From: Candidatus Saccharimonadales bacterium
Lineage (GTDB): Bacteria > Patescibacteriota > Saccharimonadia > Saccharimonadales > DATKHC01
Reading direction: 5' to 3'
DNA: 64,000 nucleotides
Assembly: GCA_035510465.1 (NCBI GenBank)
Contig: DATKHC010000001.1
Location: 6,799 to 70,798 of the forward strand
A program made the position numbers and the translations under genes. Of this stretch, positions 11,068 through 37,626 are shown piece after piece. Every line of letters starts with the position of its first letter. Within the stretch, counting starts at the first letter, position 1. The notes below the pieces were generated by a model. That model searched no databases. It saw nothing but the letters and a program-made list of their open reading frames with translations, and was not told the origin of the DNA.

Positions 11068-11153
11068 ATCGAACATTAACTTACTTTGTGAAACGCTCGA
11101 GCGTATTATATCAAAACCTCTGTTATAATTGAGTAAACTTAAGAAAAACTCAT

Positions 11154-13013
11154 TTGAAAAACGTTTTAAAGACCGTTATTAAATTTCTAAAAGGCTATAA
11201 ATTACTTAGTTTTGTTTTGGTGTGCCTGATAGCAGGGATTGTTTTATATTCCCTCGGTTATCACGTTTTAGCCAATTGGATATTAGGCATAGCCTCTTCG
11301 ATTGCCGTAATCCCTCTAATTATTGATATGACCCAGACGATTAGAGGCGGTTCGTACGGTATCGATATCCTAGCAGCCACTGCAATTATCGCTTCTGTAA
11401 TTTTAAGACAAGACTGGGCTGCGATCATTATCGCCTTGATGCTTACTGGGGGAGAAGCGCTTGAGGACTTTGCCGAGAATCGAGCTAAGACAGAACTCAA
11501 AGCACTACTGGACAATAAACCAAAAGTTGCTCACCTGTTAAAGGGTGATAAAACCATCGATATCAAAGTCAGTGAGATTAAAATCGGCAACAAGCTTCAA
11601 ATCCTACCTGGGGAGGTTGTGCCTGTAGACTGCGTAATTATTTCCGGGGAATCAACTTTCGATGAATCTAGTTTAACCGGGGAAAGTGTACCTGTAGATA
11701 AAGACCCAGAGGATCAGATACTTAGTGGTTCTGTGAATATTTCCGGGTCTATCACCGTCAGAGCCATTAGAACTGCAGAAGATAGTCAATATGAACAAAT
11801 TCTAACTTTAGTTAGGGCTGCCTCTTCAAGTCAATCACCCTTCGTCCGACTAGCTGATCGATATAGTATTCCATTTACTGCGCTTGCCTACTTTCTGGCC
11901 ATTTCAGCTTGGTTTATATCAGGTCACCCAATTAGATTCCTAGAAGTTATCGTAGTTGCAACACCGTGTCCTCTACTTCTTGCTGCACCAATCGCGCTTA
12001 TATCGGGTATGAGTCGAGCGGCTAAAGCCGGCATTATTATAAAGAATGGTTCAGCGCTAGAAAAACTAGCCGAAATAAAATCCATCGCTTTTGATAAAAC
12101 TGGCACTCTAACTAGCGGAGAGGCAGTAGTTAGCAGTGTCCAGGTATTTAAACCATTTACAAAAACTGATGTTTTGCACTTTGCATCGGCGCTTGAACTG
12201 AATTCAAATCATGTGCTCGCCAAGGCAGTCGTAAACGAGGCTGAGGAGAATAAACTAAAACCCCGACCAGCTAAGAATGTAAAGGAAATCGCTGGACATG
12301 GTTTATCTGGAAAGGTTGCTGGGAAAGACATAGTGATAGGGCGGCTCAGCTTGATGGAAAGTTCAGGCATAGAAATGAGCAAGGAGTTCAAGCCAAAGAG
12401 TATTGAAGCGACCTCTACATTTGTGGCAGTGAATGGGAAACTTGCAGGTGTGATAAGTTTTTCGGATAAGCTACGGCCCGAGACTAAAGGTATGATCAGC
12501 CACCTAAGGAAAGCAGGGATTAAACACTTCCTGATGGTTACAGGAGACAATGAAGAGGCAGCGAAGTCTGTAGCCCAAGAACTCGGTATTGATAATTTTA
12601 TGGCAAATGCTCTCCCAGCGGATAAAATGCATTTTATCGAGAATGCTTCTGATCGCCCGGTAGCCTTTGTTGGTGATGGCGTTAACGATGCTCCTGTTCT
12701 GACACTTTCTGATGTTGGAATTGCCCTAGGAGCACGCGGATCAACTGCCGCGAGCGAGTCTGCCGACGTAGTCATAATGCTAGACGACGTTAGTAAAGTC
12801 TCGATTGCTTACGATATAGCTAAGCGTACTTTTTTCATCGCTAAACAGAGTATCCTTGTTGGTATTTTTATTAGCTTTGGCTTGATGATTATATTTGCAG
12901 GAGGACATTTTAAACCAATTGTTGGTGCCATCTTACAAGAAGTGGTTGATATTATCGTGATTTTCAACGCCCTAAGAGCACATATCGATAAAAAGAAACC
13001 TGCCACACTTTAA
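11154..13013 (+). CDS. P1B-type (heavy-metal) P-type ATPase without an N-terminal metal-binding domain
   Basis: TGES, DKTGTLT and GDGVNDAP motifs. The transmembrane motif is TPCP. TTG start. Confidence 0.85.
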   Translation: MKNVLKTVIKFLKGYKLLSFVLVCLIAGIVLYSLGYHVLANWILGIASSIAVIPLIIDMTQTIRGGSYGIDILAATAIIASVILRQDWAAIIIALMLTGGEALEDFAENRAKTELKALLDNKPKVAHLLKGDKTIDIKVSEIKIGNKLQILPGEVVPVDCVIISGESTFDESSLTGESVPVDKDPEDQILSGSVNISGSITVRAIRTAEDSQYEQILTLVRAASSSQSPFVRLADRYSIPFTALAYFLAISAWFISGHPIRFLEVIVVATPCPLLLAAPIALISGMSRAAKAGIIIKNGSALEKLAEIKSIAFDKTGTLTSGEAVVSSVQVFKPFTKTDVLHFASALELNSNHVLAKAVVNEAEENKLKPRPAKNVKEIAGHGLSGKVAGKDIVIGRLSLMESSGIEMSKEFKPKSIEATSTFVAVNGKLAGVISFSDKLRPETKGMISHLRKAGIKHFLMVTGDNEEAAKSVAQELGIDNFMANALPADKMHFIENASDRPVAFVGDGVNDAPVLTLSDVGIALGARGSTAASESADVVIMLDDVSKVSIAYDIAKRTFFIAKQSILVGIFISFGLMIIFAGGHFKPIVGAILQEVVDIIVIFNALRAHIDKKKPATL

Positions 13014-33295: not shown

Positions 33296-33339
33296 AGCTA
33301 GAGTATCGCAGAGATAACATTTAGGTAAAAGCTTAATAT

Positions 33340-33368
33340 AAAAAAAATGACCTCAATACCTAAGGTCA
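33340..33368 (-). terminator. rho-independent terminator after non-coding element copy 1
   Basis: Minus strand reads UGACCU-UAGGUAUUG-AGGUCA followed by U8. Confidence 0.65.
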
Positions 33369-33381
33369 AAATGTTTATGCT

Positions 33382-33669
33382 TGGAGGTCGGGTCTGACTA
33401 TGGGTCACCCAATTAATGGCTGAGATAACACGTTGGTACTGTCATAGCTGCTGAGTACTCCCAACACGCTTTGGCTACATATAAAGTCTGATGTGTTCGG
33501 GGCTCTTAAGGTAGAGTTATTGGTTTTTAACCGAATCTACCTTAATTAAAAGCTCTTAATAGCTAAAAGGGATGGTTCGCTGGTTCCTTACGATACTACC
33601 CTTAGTTAACGCCTACCTAGTTTGAAAGTGCAAAAGTACAACTACTATAGTAGGAGACTTTTTGAGTTT
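33382..33669 (-). ncRNA. conserved structured non-coding element, copy 1 (unclassified; candidate RNA)
   Basis: About 290 nt directly after the PIN stop codon and homologous to 35384-35679. Shows compensatory changes and a GUAA tetraloop hairpin. Ends in CCTCCA and is followed by a terminator. Confidence 0.5.
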
Positions 33670-34068
33670 TCAGTTTAAGGCAAGTGTCGTAACACAATCC
33701 CTGACACTTATGATTTTGATATTTTTATGCTCTTTAAGTTCAAGTAAAAGCTTATCACCTGTTACTAAGTAGTCAGCATTACCTTTAACACTTGTTTCTA
33801 ATATTCTGTTATCGGGTTCGTCAGTTATAACATGGAGGAAAGGCTGAAAGTATACTACATCCGCTTCACTTAGCAGCTGCTGTAGTAGTTTTATATTAGT
33901 AGGCTGAGCTTTAAATCTATCCTCAAGTATACGGGTTGTTTCAGCAATGATATATGACGATAAAACCAATCCATGCAACCCTCCTAGCGTGCTAAGCAAG
34001 AGCTGCTCTGGCAAGCCATCAAATAGCAAAGCTGAAATGATAACGTTAGTGTCAAGAACAAGACGCAT
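33670..34068 (-). CDS. PIN-domain toxin (type II TA)
   Basis: MRLVLDTNVIISAL N-terminus, later acidic residues, and a 1-nt overlap with the upstream RHH gene. Confidence 0.8.
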   Translation of the reverse strand: MRLVLDTNVIISALLFDGLPEQLLLSTLGGLHGLVLSSYIIAETTRILEDRFKAQPTNIKLLQQLLSEADVVYFQPFLHVITDEPDNRILETSVKGNADYLVTGDKLLLELKEHKNIKIISVRDCVTTLALN

Positions 34069-34304
34069 TACTTAGCTCGGTGGGCGCGGACAACTTCTAC
34101 TACTTCATCTTCACTGAGTTGCTTGCCCTTATATTGGCTACGAACTTTGCTGGTTAAGCTTTCCCATTGCTCTAGGGTAGCTAATTGCTTTCTTACCGCT
34201 AGACGAACAAAATCACTACGGCTACTTCCTTGGCGCTTAGTTTGAGCGTCAATACGCTTTACGAGCTGTTTGGGCATTGATATGTTGAAAGTTTGTGAGT
34301 TCAT
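34068..34304 (-). CDS. ribbon-helix-helix (CopG-like) antitoxin
   Basis: FNISMPKQLVKRIDAQTKRQGSSRSDFVRLAV is an RHH pattern. Confidence 0.75.
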   Translation of the reverse strand: MNSQTFNISMPKQLVKRIDAQTKRQGSSRSDFVRLAVRKQLATLEQWESLTSKVRSQYKGKQLSEDEVVEVVRAHRAK

Positions 34305-34310
34305 ACAAAC

Positions 34311-34339
34311 ATTGTATGATACTATGCTTCGGTTGTCAA
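34311..34339 (-). promoter_or_regulatory. consensus-like promoter of RHH-PIN module 1
   Basis: Minus strand reads TTGACA, 17 nt, TACAAT, ending 6 nt before the ATG. Confidence 0.6.
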
Positions 34340-34394
34340 GTAGGAAATGTAAAAGTGCAGCACCTATGTATGTGCATTTTGCAGTTTCGGGATT

Positions 34395-35204
34395 CTAATT
34401 ATAGCTAACGCTACTCAAGATTTGATTTGCAGTTTGTACTTCGCTATTGCTAAACCATGCCTGGGCTTCAGCAATACTGCTGAAGTTGAGATAGTTCCCA
34501 CCTGCACTGTTATTTAATGAACCAACATTAAGGCACTGTAAGTTGCTTGTGCTAATAGTAGATTTAGTATTTTCAAAGAAGCCAGCAGCAGACTCATCAT
34601 CATTTCCTGTAGTGTTTGTATGTGAACCAACAGTAATGCCGTTTTGCTGAACAACTGCATTTGAAGTTAGATATAAGTTTTCTGAAATATTACTACTGCT
34701 ACTGCCTTGGTAAGACGAAACTGCCTTAACTATCTTAAAGCCCGGTGTTGAAGTTGGTGAAGTTACTGATAGAACATTATCGGTATAAGTTCCTGCTGGT
34801 GGGGCAGCTAATTGTGTGCAATAAGGTTGATATTCAACCGTTACATTACCTGATGGACTGGTTATATTGGCTTCTGTAGTTGTAGGCTCTGGAGCAATAG
34901 TCCCATCAGGGTCTACGCCAACTGATTTAGTGGCCAACGACCAGTTTGATGGATATTTAAGGCACAAGCCACCATAACTAGAACAGAAGGATTTCCAACC
35001 CGTATAGGGGTTAGTTACAGTGGTTGTTTTCGTTGAGCTGTATACTGGTTTTGCGGTCGAAACTGTAGCGGCAGAAGCGCTAGTAGTCTTGTGGTGGTTC
35101 TTATAGACTAACCAACCTACCGTACCAATTAAAGCCAATATAACTATAGCCAGTATTAGTTCGACAGCACTGAATCCTGAATCATTATTGTTTAGCTTTT
35201 TCAT
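34395..35204 (-). CDS. type IV pilin-like protein (large, Ser/Thr-rich)
   Basis: Prepilin motif SGFSAVELILAIVILALIG. Confidence 0.6.
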   Translation of the reverse strand: MKKLNNNDSGFSAVELILAIVILALIGTVGWLVYKNHHKTTSASAATVSTAKPVYSSTKTTTVTNPYTGWKSFCSSYGGLCLKYPSNWSLATKSVGVDPDGTIAPEPTTTEANITSPSGNVTVEYQPYCTQLAAPPAGTYTDNVLSVTSPTSTPGFKIVKAVSSYQGSSSSNISENLYLTSNAVVQQNGITVGSHTNTTGNDDESAAGFFENTKSTISTSNLQCLNVGSLNNSAGGNYLNFSSIAEAQAWFSNSEVQTANQILSSVSYN

Positions 35205-35259
35205 TAAGACTTATCCTTTTATTAGCTTCAGTTTAGCATTATAGATTAGGTGCATAGTT

Positions 35260-35383
35260 GGGTGTAACCAGTCGTAATTTTACTGGTTGAATTTAACTGT
35301 TTAAAATCAAAAGTGTTTACACCCCATGGATAACAGATATAGAAGCGGGATAATAACAGTAAAAATTGATGATTCTGTATTTG
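35260..35383 (-). repeat. direct repeat A' (copy of the sequence that follows tRNA-Lys)
   Basis: Minus strand CAAATACAGAATCATCAATTTTT...ATCTGTTATCCATGGGGTGTAAAC...GGTTACACCCAA aligns with 37425-37549. It contains a hairpin with a compensatory G-C to U-A change. Confidence 0.6.
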
Positions 35384-35679
35384 TGGAGGTCGAGACAGAC
35401 ACCAATGTACAACCTTTAATAGCTGAAGTACTGCGCTGGCGTAGTGTCATAGGTACTGTGTACTCCCAACAAGCTTTAACTACATACAAAGTCTGATTTG
35501 TTCGGGCTTTTAAGGTGGAAGCATTGGTTTCTCATCGAGCCTACCTTAATAACACCTCTTAATAGTTAAAAGGGATAGTTCGCTGGTTCCTTACGGTACT
35601 ACCCCTAGATAACTGCCTACCGACTTTGAAAGTGCAAAAGTACAACTACTATAGTAAGAGACTTTTTGCGTTTTCAGTG
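35384..35679 (-). ncRNA. conserved structured non-coding element, copy 2 (unclassified; candidate RNA)
   Basis: Homologous to 33382-33669 and located directly after the second PIN gene. It shares a 32-nt block (TACTATAGTAGTTGTACTTTTGCACTTTCAAA) and an 18-nt block (CGTAAGGAACCAGCGAAC), both identical. Confidence 0.5.
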
Positions 35680-36075
35680 CTAGCCTAAGATTTTATTGAA
35701 AGCTGTCGGAGTAATAATTGCTGTGCTTTTATACTTTTTAAGCACTGCCAAATCTTCATCAAGCGTAACAATATAGTCTGCTTTGCCATACAATGCTGTA
35801 GCTAAAATCATATCGTCATTAGAATCACGGGATATTTTCTCGATACTTTCTAGTTTCGCTACTTCAGATACTCTTACCAATAGATTAGTTCGTGATTTAG
35901 CAGCTTGTTTTGTTAAGCCGAACTTAGATGATAAAACTGTCTCTACTTCAGCTAGGATAGGAACTGAGATGACTATTACGATATTTCTAGAACTAACAGC
36001 TTGCTTCAGTTTTAATATCTGGTCTCTGCGTGATAGCAGCGTTACTAACACACTTGTGTCGTAGACAACACGCAT
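35680..36075 (-). CDS. PIN-domain toxin (type II TA)
   Basis: MRVVYDTSVLV N-terminus and PIN acidic residues. Only distantly similar to the other PIN. Confidence 0.8.
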   Translation of the reverse strand: MRVVYDTSVLVTLLSRRDQILKLKQAVSSRNIVIVISVPILAEVETVLSSKFGLTKQAAKSRTNLLVRVSEVAKLESIEKISRDSNDDMILATALYGKADYIVTLDEDLAVLKKYKSTAIITPTAFNKILG

Positions 36076-36078
36076 AAA

Positions 36079-36345
36079 TCAACGCTTTCTAGTTGAACTT
36101 CGTACTTCTTTAACTGCCCTAAGGTAGTCTTTGTCGCTTGCATAGCCAGCTTTCTTAGCACTTGCACGAACTTCGTCAGCACCAATTGCAAGTTCTCCCC
36201 ATATATCGTTATCTTGAGCTTTTAATCGTCTCACAATAGTTTGACGAATAAACTCGCTTCTAGAGGCATAATCCACACTAGCTGCATTATCAATTTTTTT
36301 TACTAATTCTTTGGGTAGTGATATATTTATAATCTGTGTAGTCAT
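36079..36345 (-). CDS. ribbon-helix-helix (CopG-like) antitoxin
   Basis: INISLPKELVKKIDNAASVDYASRSEFIRQTI is an RHH pattern. Confidence 0.75.
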   Translation of the reverse strand: MTTQIINISLPKELVKKIDNAASVDYASRSEFIRQTIVRRLKAQDNDIWGELAIGADEVRASAKKAGYASDKDYLRAVKEVRSSTRKR

Positions 36346-36373
36346 ATAAATCCTATATTAATTACATATAATT

Positions 36374-36402
36374 ATTATATGCCTATAGTCTACTGGTGTC
36401 AA
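36374..36402 (-). promoter_or_regulatory. consensus promoter of RHH-PIN module 2
   Basis: Minus strand reads TTGACA, 17 nt, TATAAT. Confidence 0.6.
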
Positions 36403-36495
36403 TACTATGTATTGGTCCATAACATACTAAACCTGCAAATGTAAAATCGTATATTACTACTTATTAAGACTCTAACTAAGTAACTCTGGCGGGAG

Positions 36496-37389
36496 CTACT
36501 CTTGATGAAGTATCTTTGCGAATACCGATGGACCATCTTCTTTAAGTGCAGTAGCTATCTGTACAGCAGACGCTCCTGCTGATATATAGTCTTTAACATC
36601 TGTAGCTGTGCTAATACCGCCTGCTCCTATAATATAAATGTCTTTTGGCAGTAAAGAACGCAATTGCTTAACAACACCCAAGCTAATTGGTTTAAGTGCT
36701 CTACCGGCTAGCCCTACGAGCTTATCGTCATAGAACTTATTATCTTTGGCCCCACTAGTAATCGCGGCATTAGGATAAGTATTTGTGGCTGTTACGATTT
36801 GGACAATACCGGAATCAATTATTGCTTTACTCACTTCTTGCAGAATATCTGGAGGGAGGGGCGAAATTTTAACACTTATTTTTATCTTAGGTGATTGTTT
36901 GCTAATAAAAGACAAGGCGTCCTTAACTAGCGAAGCATGATACGAAATTATACGTTTCTGATGGACTCCATCCCAAACATTCGGGCAACCAAAGTTAAGT
37001 TCCACTACATCAGCACCTGATTCTTCAGCAAACCCAACCAACTCCACAAACTCAGAGTTAGAGAAACCAATAACGTTTGCAACTAATGGTTTACCCTCAC
37101 TATGTGCGATTTTTACCATCTTGGGTAAAGCCTCTTTAAAATATGGGATTCCGCCATTGGGCAGTCCGTAAGAATTGAGCGAGAAGAAATGCTCTTTATG
37201 AAGCCAGTAGTTCTTCCCTGGATTTTTATTTCGCGGCTGAACTGAGATTGAGCCAACAACTACGGCGCCCGCCGCTGAGCTTACTAAAGCATTAATATCC
37301 TTAAGGTTCTTACTGTTTATATATGCGCCGTTCATGAGAGCATTGCCAAACTTAATGCCTGCAATGTTTACGGAAGATGATAGTTTCAT
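36496..37389 (-). CDS. pyrD: dihydroorotate dehydrogenase, class 1-like
   Basis: TIM-barrel DHOD pattern with the active-site ELNFGCPNV. Confidence 0.75.
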   Translation of the reverse strand: MKLSSSVNIAGIKFGNALMNGAYINSKNLKDINALVSSAAGAVVVGSISVQPRNKNPGKNYWLHKEHFFSLNSYGLPNGGIPYFKEALPKMVKIAHSEGKPLVANVIGFSNSEFVELVGFAEESGADVVELNFGCPNVWDGVHQKRIISYHASLVKDALSFISKQSPKIKISVKISPLPPDILQEVSKAIIDSGIVQIVTATNTYPNAAITSGAKDNKFYDDKLVGLAGRALKPISLGVVKQLRSLLPKDIYIIGAGGISTATDVKDYISAGASAVQIATALKEDGPSVFAKILHQE

Positions 37390-37424: not shown

Positions 37425-37549
37425 TGGGGGTAACCTCCTACGATTTTTACGTTAATTTTTAAACCTTAGGAAAAGTAAAAAGTTACCCCCACTGTGTAAC
37501 AGATGTAAAAAGATGGATTGTTTAGCAAAAATTGATAGTTCTGTATTCG
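37425..37549 (-). repeat. direct repeat A (immediately downstream of tRNA-Lys)
   Basis: Minus strand CGAATACAGAACTATCAATTTTT...ATCTGTTACACAGTGGGGGTAAC...GTTACCCCCAA. The 10-bp stem is TGGGGGTAAC/GTTACCCCCA. Confidence 0.6.
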
Positions 37550-37626
37550 TGGAGGGCCCAGTGGGACTCGAACCCACGACACCCTGCTTAAAAGGCAGGT
37601 GCTCTAACCAGCTGAGCTATGGGCCC
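37550..37626 (-). tRNA. tRNA-Lys (anticodon TTT)
   Basis: Acceptor GGGCCCA/TGGGCCC, anticodon arm CCTGC-CTTTTAA-GCAGG, T-arm GTGGG-TTCGAGT-CCCAC, CCA. Confidence 0.9.

Follow-up and report, generated by a model that had tools for sequence, protein, structure and literature searches.

Introduction

In streptococcal ICE/CIME arrays, integrative elements and integrase-less CIMEs accrete in tandem at the 3' end of a tRNA-Lys gene. The pdif modules of Acinetobacter plasmids, which often carry toxin-antitoxin (TA) genes, are Xer-dependent and are bounded by 28-bp XerC/D sites in alternating orientation. The CPR bacteria, to which the Saccharibacteria belong, have tiny genomes, and little is known of how they gain and lose genes. 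To our knowledge, no integron-like system has been characterised in this phylum, and our search of the literature on islands, cassettes, tRNA-Lys or toxin-antitoxin systems in Saccharibacteria/Patescibacteria found nothing relevant.

Here we analysed a locus in the metagenome-assembled genome (MAG) of a Candidatus Saccharimonadales bacterium; the whole 64-kb stretch of DNA that was studied is called the window. An earlier note on this DNA had pointed to a non-coding sequence of about 290 nt behind two RHH-PIN toxin-antitoxin pairs. Our results suggest that this element, here called the tail, probably marks the boundaries of gene cassettes formed by site-specific recombination at a short motif, CCTCCA, that it shares with the end of a tRNA-Lys gene. 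All the evidence comes from MAGs and metagenome contigs.

Results

Two copies of a conserved repeat in an array behind tRNA-Lys

The window holds two direct copies of the element on the minus strand, tail copy 1 at 33382-33673 and tail copy 2 at 35384-35677, each of which begins at the stop codon of a PIN gene or within 3 nt of it, as the earlier note had described. Blocks of 32 and 18 nt are identical between the two copies and occur only these two times in the window, against a chance expectation of 0.00-0.02, and the mean column identity is 85% over about 390 aligned nt when both copies are taken with their flanks. The PIN proteins had been judged to be only distantly similar, and the two indeed share 30% identity, while the RHH proteins of the two pairs share 44% identity over 41 aa. 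The repeat of about 290 nt is real and under selection. Specifically, copy 1 consists of H1 (33624-33671), H2 (33569-33602), H3 (33506-33545) and a 3' block (33382-33503) with its CCTCCA core at 33382-33387; it is the last copy in the array, and its 3' block carries a 1-nt and a 2-nt deletion. Copy 2 consists of H1, a terminator-like hairpin (35628-35675), H2 (35572-35605), H3 (35510-35549) and a 3' block (35384-35507) with its core at 35384-35389. The hairpins named in the earlier note, GGGGTAGT/ACTATCCC with a GUAA loop and TTAAGGTAG/CTACCTTAA, are present. Two Logan contigs considered as strain variants of the window's own locus merely break within tail copy 1.

A tRNA-Lys(UUU) gene is located at 37550-37626 on the minus strand (ARAGORN; Rfam tRNA, 74 bits), and its last six bases, CCTCCA (37550-37555), are common to the tail ends. 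Both copies end in GACCTCCA and the tRNA ends in ...GGGCCCTCCA, which bears out the noted resemblance of the copies to a tRNA 3' end. The further proposal that the last 20 nt of copy 2 resemble the 3' half of tRNA-Lys holds for CCTCCA, and the likeness beyond this motif is weak. Tail segments that could derive from tRNA-Lys, the 9-mer CCCATAGCT and the 8-mer CCTTTTAA, are at chance level, since 147 of 2000 shuffles give such a match.

This tRNA-Lys is the anchor, or attB-like side, of an array of two cassettes, all on the minus strand. Cassette 1 starts directly after the tRNA CCTCCA with leader module 1 (37425-37549; about 125-130 nt), which is matched by the leader HMM at 37555-37425, by the tail HMM with flank at 37571-37502 (E=3e-4), and by blastn with the junction of locus L016 at 37556-37497. 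The cargo of this cassette (35680-37389) is a DHO_dh-family gene (36496-37389; Pfam DHO_dh, 8.9e-43), an RHH antitoxin (36079-36345) and a PIN toxin (35680-36075), with a promoter TTGACA-17-TATAAT at 36402-36374 (promoter scan, 12/12 matches). Cassette 2 starts with leader module 2 (35260-35383; leader HMM match 35389-35260), where both strands carry promoter-like hexamers and an imperfect inverted repeat of 23 nt is found at 35260-35282 / 35302-35324. Its cargo (33670-35204) is a pilin-like gene with an N-methyl motif (34395-35204), an RHH gene (34068-34304) and a PIN gene (33670-34068), with a promoter TTGACA-17-TACAAT at 34339-34311 in the promoter scan. The terminator that had been reported after copy 1 was recovered by the terminator scan as an intrinsic-terminator-like hairpin with a T8 run (33348-33368, minus strand). 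It lies in unrelated flank past the last core and is probably a piece of the original chromosomal flank; the next gene in minus-strand order encodes an HD-domain protein.

The tail is modular, clade-restricted and follows diverse cargo

To find further copies, we used a degenerate search pattern that fits all five copies then known. Among 185,579 species genomes it found 5 loci in 4 genomes, all of them Saccharibacteria, together with 5 metagenome contigs, while searches of the viral, phage and plasmid collections gave no match. The element is restricted to a narrow clade of Saccharimonadales (CPR). An origin from phages or plasmids was rejected, given that these collections gave no matches and that four viral matches to the leader motif are due to chance, neither HMM matching them.

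The tail is 230-295 nt long, always has the orientation of the upstream gene, and comprises H1, a variable middle with H2 and H3, and a 3' block that runs to CCTCCA. H1, of about 50 nt, starts at the cargo stop codon or just past it; its short palindrome has an A-tract of the CAAAAAG type on one side and a T-tract of the ACTTTTG type on the other. The AU-rich stem has folding energies of -10 to -16 kcal/mol on either strand, and the terminator consensus scan, which demands at least three G-C pairs, made no call on it; H1 probably serves as a terminator or insulator in both directions. The middle hairpins are optional, H2 with its GUAA loop being absent from three copies and H3 from one (4 of 12 in total). 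The 3' block of about 120 nt has a mean column identity of 86%, is free of indels in 15 of 16 copies and ends in (G/C)NCCTCCA. The leader of about 130 nt contains an imperfect inverted repeat of 23-25 nt and promoter-like hexamers on both strands; its TTTACA-N16-TATAAA is conserved, but the -10 hexamer lacks the final T and the promoter scan passed over it. The leader and the 3' block show no significant homology as two similar arms (local alignment score 28 versus 21.1 +/- 3.9 after shuffling, a score reached by 35 of 500 shuffles), and the two ends of the element share no inverted repeats. A MITE or IS end was rejected, as terminal inverted repeats are absent and the orientation is always that of the upstream gene. 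A group I intron, an IS200/IS605 end and a dif-like site were likewise rejected, with no terminal inverted repeats, no matching motifs and no Rfam intron match.

About 20 copies lie 3' of unrelated cargo genes. Locus L001 (extended as L024), which has an 82%-identical PIN, contains three copies, located after a peptidase S66 gene, a hypothetical gene and an RHH-PIN pair. Other copies follow an HD gene (L014), a gene for a 415-aa secreted protein (L017), an LCM-type methyltransferase region, and RelB-YafQ pairs with YafQ toxins (L021/L027). RHH-PIN pairs precede five or six copies (both window copies, L020, L024c, L032 and L019). PIN homologues of 70-80% identity are followed by no element or only by its first 70 nt, that is H1, and H1 alone is found 3' of RHH-PIN in more distant genomes (L002-L007, L031, L035).

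Cassette junctions at the tRNA-Lys 3' end

Arrays are anchored at tRNA-Lys in five genomes, namely the window, DATKHB01 (L017 and L014), ERZ25039454 (L024), PLTT01 (L016) and L032, and in all five the anchoring tRNA-Lys lies behind the same RimK/DUF192/membrane-protein genes. DATKHB01 carries 3.5 copies on one contig and ERZ25039454 carries 3. An intact tRNA-Lys is followed at once by a leader or cassette in the window, L017, L024, L016, L032 and L031. The cassette sets differ between genomes with the same flanks: the window holds [DHO_dh, RHH-PIN][pilin, RHH-PIN] and L032 holds [AAA_18, RHH-PIN]. In L016, RHH-PIN comes ahead of the pilin gene.

CCTCCA is common to the tRNA end and to every tail end, and the leader stands directly 3' of it in three settings: after the tRNA, after internal tails, and after at least three other, unrelated tail families, which likewise finish in ..CCTCCA(-like) ahead of the leader. 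In the terminal tails (window copy 1, L024b, L024c, L021, L022), homology is lost exactly past CCTCCA. The junctions are of three kinds, between tRNA and leader, between tail and leader, and between tail and unrelated flank, equivalent to BOP', POP' and POB'. Junctions of the types B-O-P', P-O-P' and P-O-B' are what repeated integration of circular units at a tRNA 3' end leaves behind. The cleanest single case is the more distant locus L031, in which an RHH-PIN cassette lies between a tRNA-Lys that ends in ...TGGGCCCTCCA, followed by AGAC, and a far end ...TGGGCCTCCA, also followed by AGAC; the direct repeat of 14 nt (attL/attR) is TGGGCC(C)TCCAAGAC. In L016 and L015 the break lies within the leader and not at CCTCCA, at about +20 and about +48, respectively.

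Two features of tRNA targeting are present, an insertion that abuts the intact tRNA 3' end and a distal direct repeat with a break in homology; an integrase within the element, as a further such feature, was not found. Short contigs show no terminal overlaps indicative of circular forms, and no empty site was observed. A second possibility in the earlier note was a recombination arm belonging to a small integrative element. The tRNA-Lys anchoring, the break at CCTCCA and the attL/attR repeat of L031 favour this proposal, which fits the evidence best.

Search for a recombinase

No recombinase was found among the cassette genes of any locus or near the arrays. Of the window's ORFs, ten are of integrase size; these are housekeeping genes or lack a Pfam match, and the 64-kb window contains no recombinase. 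Since the cassettes hold no integrase, the data fit only an integrase-less variant that is mobilised in trans. An IS110-family element in L027/L028 is a separate insertion within the leader, and blastn found no similarity between its ends and the tail. We therefore rejected the view that the tail is an IS110-family non-coding end, because the element of L027/L028 is separate, the cassettes have no adjacent DEDD recombinase, and the ends are not similar. The only lead to a recombinase is indirect. In L025, a very short contig, an AAA_25 RepA-like gene stands before a half tail, and in L040, which has neither tail nor leader, a homologue of this AAA_25 gene adjoins a large serine recombinase.

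Conservation and exchange of tails

To compare the tail with neighbouring coding sequence, we used orthologous RHH-PIN-tail cassettes. Between the window and L032, identity is 0.72 at third codon positions of the PIN gene, 0.89 in the 3' block and 0.87 in the 5' half of the tail; the corresponding values are 0.68, 0.95 and 0.83 for L020, and 0.53, 0.79 and 0.76 for L024. As judged from these comparisons, the tail is functional at the sequence level, because orthologous tails have diverged less than synonymous sites in the PIN gene beside them. Intragenomic gene conversion was rejected as the cause, as the nearest relative of each window copy is in another genome and often lies behind different cargo. 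Additionally, orthologous cassettes can bear different 3' block subtypes. These subtypes are common across genomes and cargo types, which indicates that tails recombine among cassettes.

Little sign of a structured RNA

The element is not a known RNA, in line with the earlier note, which could not assign it to any class: Rfam gives no match at the gathering threshold or at E<=10. Specifically, cmscan (Rfam 15) of the whole window returned only tRNAs, cmscan of the region 33300-35750 at E<=10 returned three chance matches, none of them on the element, and cmscan of L027, L017 and L014 again returned only tRNAs. A tmRNA, RNase P or tRNA-like end was rejected, as ARAGORN calls neither tmRNA nor tRNA in the element and no acceptor-like 3' helix could be drawn by eye.

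Folding of single sequences gave z-scores of +0.1 to -1.7 over both strands, the sense-strand scores of the copies lying between -0.9 and +0.1. RNAalifold on 12 full-length copies (299 columns) gave weak consensus folds (sense strand, -9.1 kcal/mol; antisense strand, -10.2 kcal/mol and without covariation), and on the 3' block (last 125 nt, 16 copies) it gave 0 compensatory pairs. The helices proposed in the earlier note and three local hairpins were then scored in 12 copies against 500 shuffles. The claim that differences between copies preserve pairing did not hold beyond chance, with 80.0% of cells paired versus 79.3% after shuffling (equalled or exceeded in 56 of 500 shuffles). The same 12 copies had 7 pairs with changes on both sides, versus 6.0 after shuffling (at least as many in 180 of 500 shuffles). 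The covariation score was 0.100 versus 0.084 (15 of 500), a level that, by the calibration of the tool, related sequences attain without structure. The asymmetry of G-U versus A-C pairs conflicts on the strand, H1 fitting the plus strand and H2 the minus strand. Together, there is little sign of a structured RNA, and significant covariation, as expected of a generic structured non-coding RNA, is not seen.

Alternative explanations of the tail

The main proposal of the earlier note was that the sequence is a large structured RNA with a genetic link to the PIN toxin. On this account the sense strand would encode a structured RNA of about 290 nt that acts as decoy, substrate or third TA component for the PIN RNase. 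Five or six copies do sit behind RHH-PIN pairs, the G-U pairs and the GUAA loop of H2 suit the sense strand, and the 8-mer after H2 equals the anticodon loop of tRNA-Lys, although this match is at chance level. The coupling itself fails, since most copies stand behind cargo other than PIN, and PIN homologues of 70-80% identity lack the element or have H1 alone. An RNA partner is unsupported because the element also accompanies other cargo, some copies lack an entire hairpin (H2 or H3 in 4 of 12), covariation is not significant, sense-strand z-scores stay between -0.9 and +0.1, and Rfam gives no match; we disfavour this explanation and consider it extremely unlikely. The case also serves as a warning, in that a conserved non-coding block beside a toxin gene resembled a dedicated RNA partner until more copies were gathered. 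It is also very unlikely that the tails are neutral relics, left over from old duplications or dead integrative elements and devoid of present function. No recombinase lies nearby and some copies are truncated (L016, the partial copy of L014, L025, L035), as relics might be, but orthologous tails are far more conserved than their neighbour's synonymous sites and the 3' block has no indels in 15 of 16 copies. Type III TA systems offered another RNA partner for a toxin, and an antitoxin RNA of this kind was rejected, the tail being a single downstream unit that is also found behind non-toxin genes.

Two further explanations were considered. The tail could belong to an independent small gene on the plus strand of the window, with promoters in the leader and a transcript of about 350 nt that crosses the core and the 3' block and stops at H1, encoding an sRNA or a peptide of 37 codons ((V/M/L)E.DS..GLPQLMAEITRWRTVIAAEYSQHALTTYKV and a stop) that travels with the cassettes. 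In 13 of 15 copies the frame is open and has no indels, though the rest of the tail is rich in indels; its pN/pS is 0.61, versus 0.9-1.1 in three of the five other frames (the overlapping sense frame rc1 has 0.63), and most copy pairs give 0.4-0.7. Nearly all copies have an NTG codon that overlaps the core, pairing in the extended H1 stem is better on the plus strand, where G-U pairs replace the A-C of the minus strand, leader 2 has promoter-like hexamers on the plus strand (35279-35307), and the leaderless terminal copy 1 is the only copy with frameshifting deletions. Against this, the variable sites are spread nearly evenly over codon positions (17/17/20), neither a Shine-Dalgarno sequence nor a conserved upstream start is present, a stop interrupts the frame in L018 and the stop codon is lost in L019. 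Moreover, Pfam gives no match, only 6 called ORFs were found among 5.8 billion proteins, the TTTACA-N16-TATAAA of the leader lacks the last T of its -10 hexamer and was missed by the scan, the antisense fold is weak and shows no covariation, and most of the five terminal copies, which lack a leader, are still intact. We regard such a gene as rather unlikely; a non-coding plus-strand transcript from leader to H1, lacking structural support, is possible. A doubtful explanation is a portable 3' UTR or insulator, made up of a bidirectional terminator and mRNA-end sequences, which would spread by homologous recombination or natural transformation and play no role in site-specific recombination. H1 at the stop codon, with its A-tract, palindrome and T-tract and its folding on both strands (-10 to -16 kcal/mol), the solitary H1 copies after RHH-PIN in distant genomes (L002-L007, L031, L035) and the mosaic of 3' block subtypes relative to cargo all suit it. 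It does not account for the conservation of the 3' block, which is higher than in any other part of the tail, or for the tRNA CCTCCA at every tail end with the break in homology there, and if H1 terminates transcription, the following 240 nt are absent from the mRNA.

Discussion

Our data suggest the following model. The tail would form the conserved, non-coding 3' terminus of small mobile cassettes that follow one another head-to-tail from the end of tRNA-Lys(UUU) onwards. A cassette would open with the leader of about 130 nt and its promoter-like signals, continue with one to four cargo genes, in many cases type II TA pairs, and close with the tail. Circular cassettes would integrate repeatedly and site-specifically at the tRNA 3' end, and an attP-like site of about 250 bp may be made up of 3' block, core and leader. 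This site would be read by a recombinase encoded elsewhere in the genome, as with integron cassettes or integrase-less CIMEs.

In its full form, this model makes the tail an integron-like or CIME-like cassette junction module whose 3' block serves as an att arm, and for this full statement we consider the balance even. Several observations weigh against the model. Neither a cassette nor the surroundings of an array contains an integrase or other recombinase, and neither a circular cassette nor an empty site was observed. The 3' block is absent from cassettes that have tails of other types and hence cannot be essential to every integration. Its continuous, indel-free conservation over 120 nt exceeds the normal need of a few protein-binding sites, its opposite strand carries a weak codon-like signal, and L016 and L015 break inside the leader. 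By analogy, one might go further and suppose an undescribed gene-capture platform, with tRNA-Lys as the primary site, promoter-bearing cassettes with an attP-like junction of about 250 bp and a recombinase acting in trans; most boldly, a transcript of leader, core and tail would be an RNA cofactor or guide of the recombinase, comparable to the bridge RNAs of IS110 elements. We think this extension improbable.

As a cassette array, the locus is a compact, repeat-delimited hot spot behind tRNA-Lys through which relatives exchange accessory genes, among them TA pairs and pilin-like genes. Should the cassettes be mobilised in trans, they would represent an integron-like system in this phylum, and the junction modules would offer a direct handle for the search for the enzyme.

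Several known systems share features with this locus. Type III TA systems such as ToxI have non-coding sequence beside an RNase toxin gene, yet ToxI consists of tandem short repeats upstream of a ToxN/AbiQ-type toxin, whereas the tail occurs as one unit 3' of a PIN_3 toxin gene, whose antitoxin is an RHH protein, and is also located after non-toxin genes. The ends of IS110/IS1111 elements, which carry bridge or seek RNAs, resemble the tail in placing a few hundred nt of structured non-coding sequence directly at the core, with promoter-like signals across the junction, and a real IS110-family element is present in the loci studied here. Unlike such elements, the cassettes have no similarity to these ends, no DEDD recombinase and no guide-like complementarity beyond chance. 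The pdif modules are likewise small, recombination-site bounded and frequently TA pairs, with the recombinase encoded elsewhere, but the present locus shows no evident dif-like site and is anchored at a chromosomal tRNA gene.

A lambda-type attP, with P arm, core and P' arm in about 240 bp, is mirrored by the 120-nt block, core and 130-nt leader, and the junctions correspond to those of tandem integration (BOP', POP', POB'); in contrast to lambda, we identified no arm-type repeats, the site has neither an integrase nor an excisionase gene beside it, and the similarity of the arms is not significant. Integrons share with this locus small cassettes in the same orientation that are rich in TA genes, a conserved recombination-associated repeat right after the cargo stop codon, and a recombinase outside the cassettes; here an IS110-family element targets the repeat as IS1111-attC elements target attC. 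They differ in that the array has no IntI beside it, its primary site is a tRNA end and its cassettes have their own promoters. The repeat of 290 nt plus a leader of 130 nt also contrasts with attC, an imperfect palindrome of 55-141 nt, and no pair of R''/R' boxes (RYYYAAC/GTTRRRY) is visible in it by eye. An integron attC site was accordingly rejected, as the tail measures 230-295 nt, its ends are not inverted repeats and no integrase lies beside the array. The streptococcal ICE/CIME arrays share the head-to-tail arrangement at a tRNA 3' end, the tRNA-end repeat that bounds each unit, the att-like internal junctions, and the occurrence of units without integrase that would need one in trans. 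Compared with them, the units described here are tiny (1-4 genes, about 2 kb), none of them carries an integrase, the host is a CPR bacterium, and the core is only 6-14 nt long and is flanked by the 120-nt 3' block and the 130-nt leader. Together, the locus is unusual in its long junction modules and in having no visible recombinase, and we classify it as tRNA-anchored tandem integration with CIME-like or integron-like cassettes.

Distribution of the leader and subtypes of the tail

The leader, a 130-nt module that begins each cassette (window 35260–35383 and 37425–37549; L008 3566–3697; L024 4827–4956 and 9586–9711), has a wider distribution than the 290-nt tail. It contains a 23–25-nt imperfect inverted repeat, GGGGTGTAAAC...GGTTACCCC, and also stands in front of cassettes whose upstream neighbour carries a different tail family at its end. 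In the related contigs L008–L013, the leader lies upstream of an RHH-PIN pair adjoining YebC-RuvCAB, and no tail was found at this site. The RHH-PIN cassette located immediately behind tRNA-Lys in L031 (8578–9660) is bracketed by a 14-nt direct repeat, TGGGCC(C)TCCAAGAC, comprising the tRNA 3' end and flank; of the tail modules it retains only H1, the hairpin at the cargo stop codon, together with a different tail of ~190 nt.

The cargo type does not predict the subtype of the 3' block, the module that ends the tail, as demonstrated by comparing window 33382–33516 with L020, L021, L027, and L032. Specifically, the 3' block of window copy 1 shares 92–93% identity with tails that other contigs carry behind YafQ toxins, whereas against the L032 tail, which belongs to the orthologous RHH-PIN cassette, the figure is only 84%, and against window copy 2 only 74%. 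Two Logan contigs carrying the HD gene of the window (L029 and L030) both begin ~84 nt inside tail copy 1, which indicates that short-read assemblies break at the tail repeat, and cassette arrays are probably under-represented in MAGs.

Signals and matches in and around the tail

On the + strand, the invariant 32-nt block of the tail (window 33622–33651 and 35626–35655) contains a promoter-like signal, TTGAAA-18-TATAGT (10/12), that faces into the PIN gene at its 3' end. The -10 part is not kept in either L001b or L015, whose palindrome reads CCTAGG, so that this likeness probably arises incidentally from the A/T-tract hairpin. The 9-mer CCCATAGCT, ~20 nt ahead of the core CCTCCA in L014 (1648–1656) and at the corresponding site of L017b, L016, L019, and L032, equals positions 4–12 of tRNA-Lys; CCTTTTAA behind the H2 hairpin equals the tRNA-Lys anticodon loop. 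Both likenesses may be chance, because such a match arose in 147 of 2000 shuffles. A weak match to Rfam TD-1 upstream of RHH1 (window 34279–34392, + strand; 24 bits against a gathering score of 64.5, E=0.47) was taken as chance.

Recombinase and insertion sequence

Contig L040 encodes a 538-aa large serine recombinase (11152–12768) adjoining an AAA_25 RepA-like gene, the latter 66% identical to the cargo of a half-tail cassette in L025. This recombinase could be of a type that acts as a helper, but L040 contains neither tail nor leader.

A 1.5-kb insertion sequence of the IS110 family (L027 473–2013, minus strand; L028 402–1942), encoding a 342-aa DEDD_Tnp_IS110/Transposase_20 protein, is inserted within the cassette leader at TATCT|GTTA, with right flanks that are unlike between the two contigs. 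Its ends, if joined, are predicted to form a TTGACA-17-TATACT junction promoter. The location inside a cassette leader is reminiscent of IS1111-attC elements, which target the attC sites of integrons.
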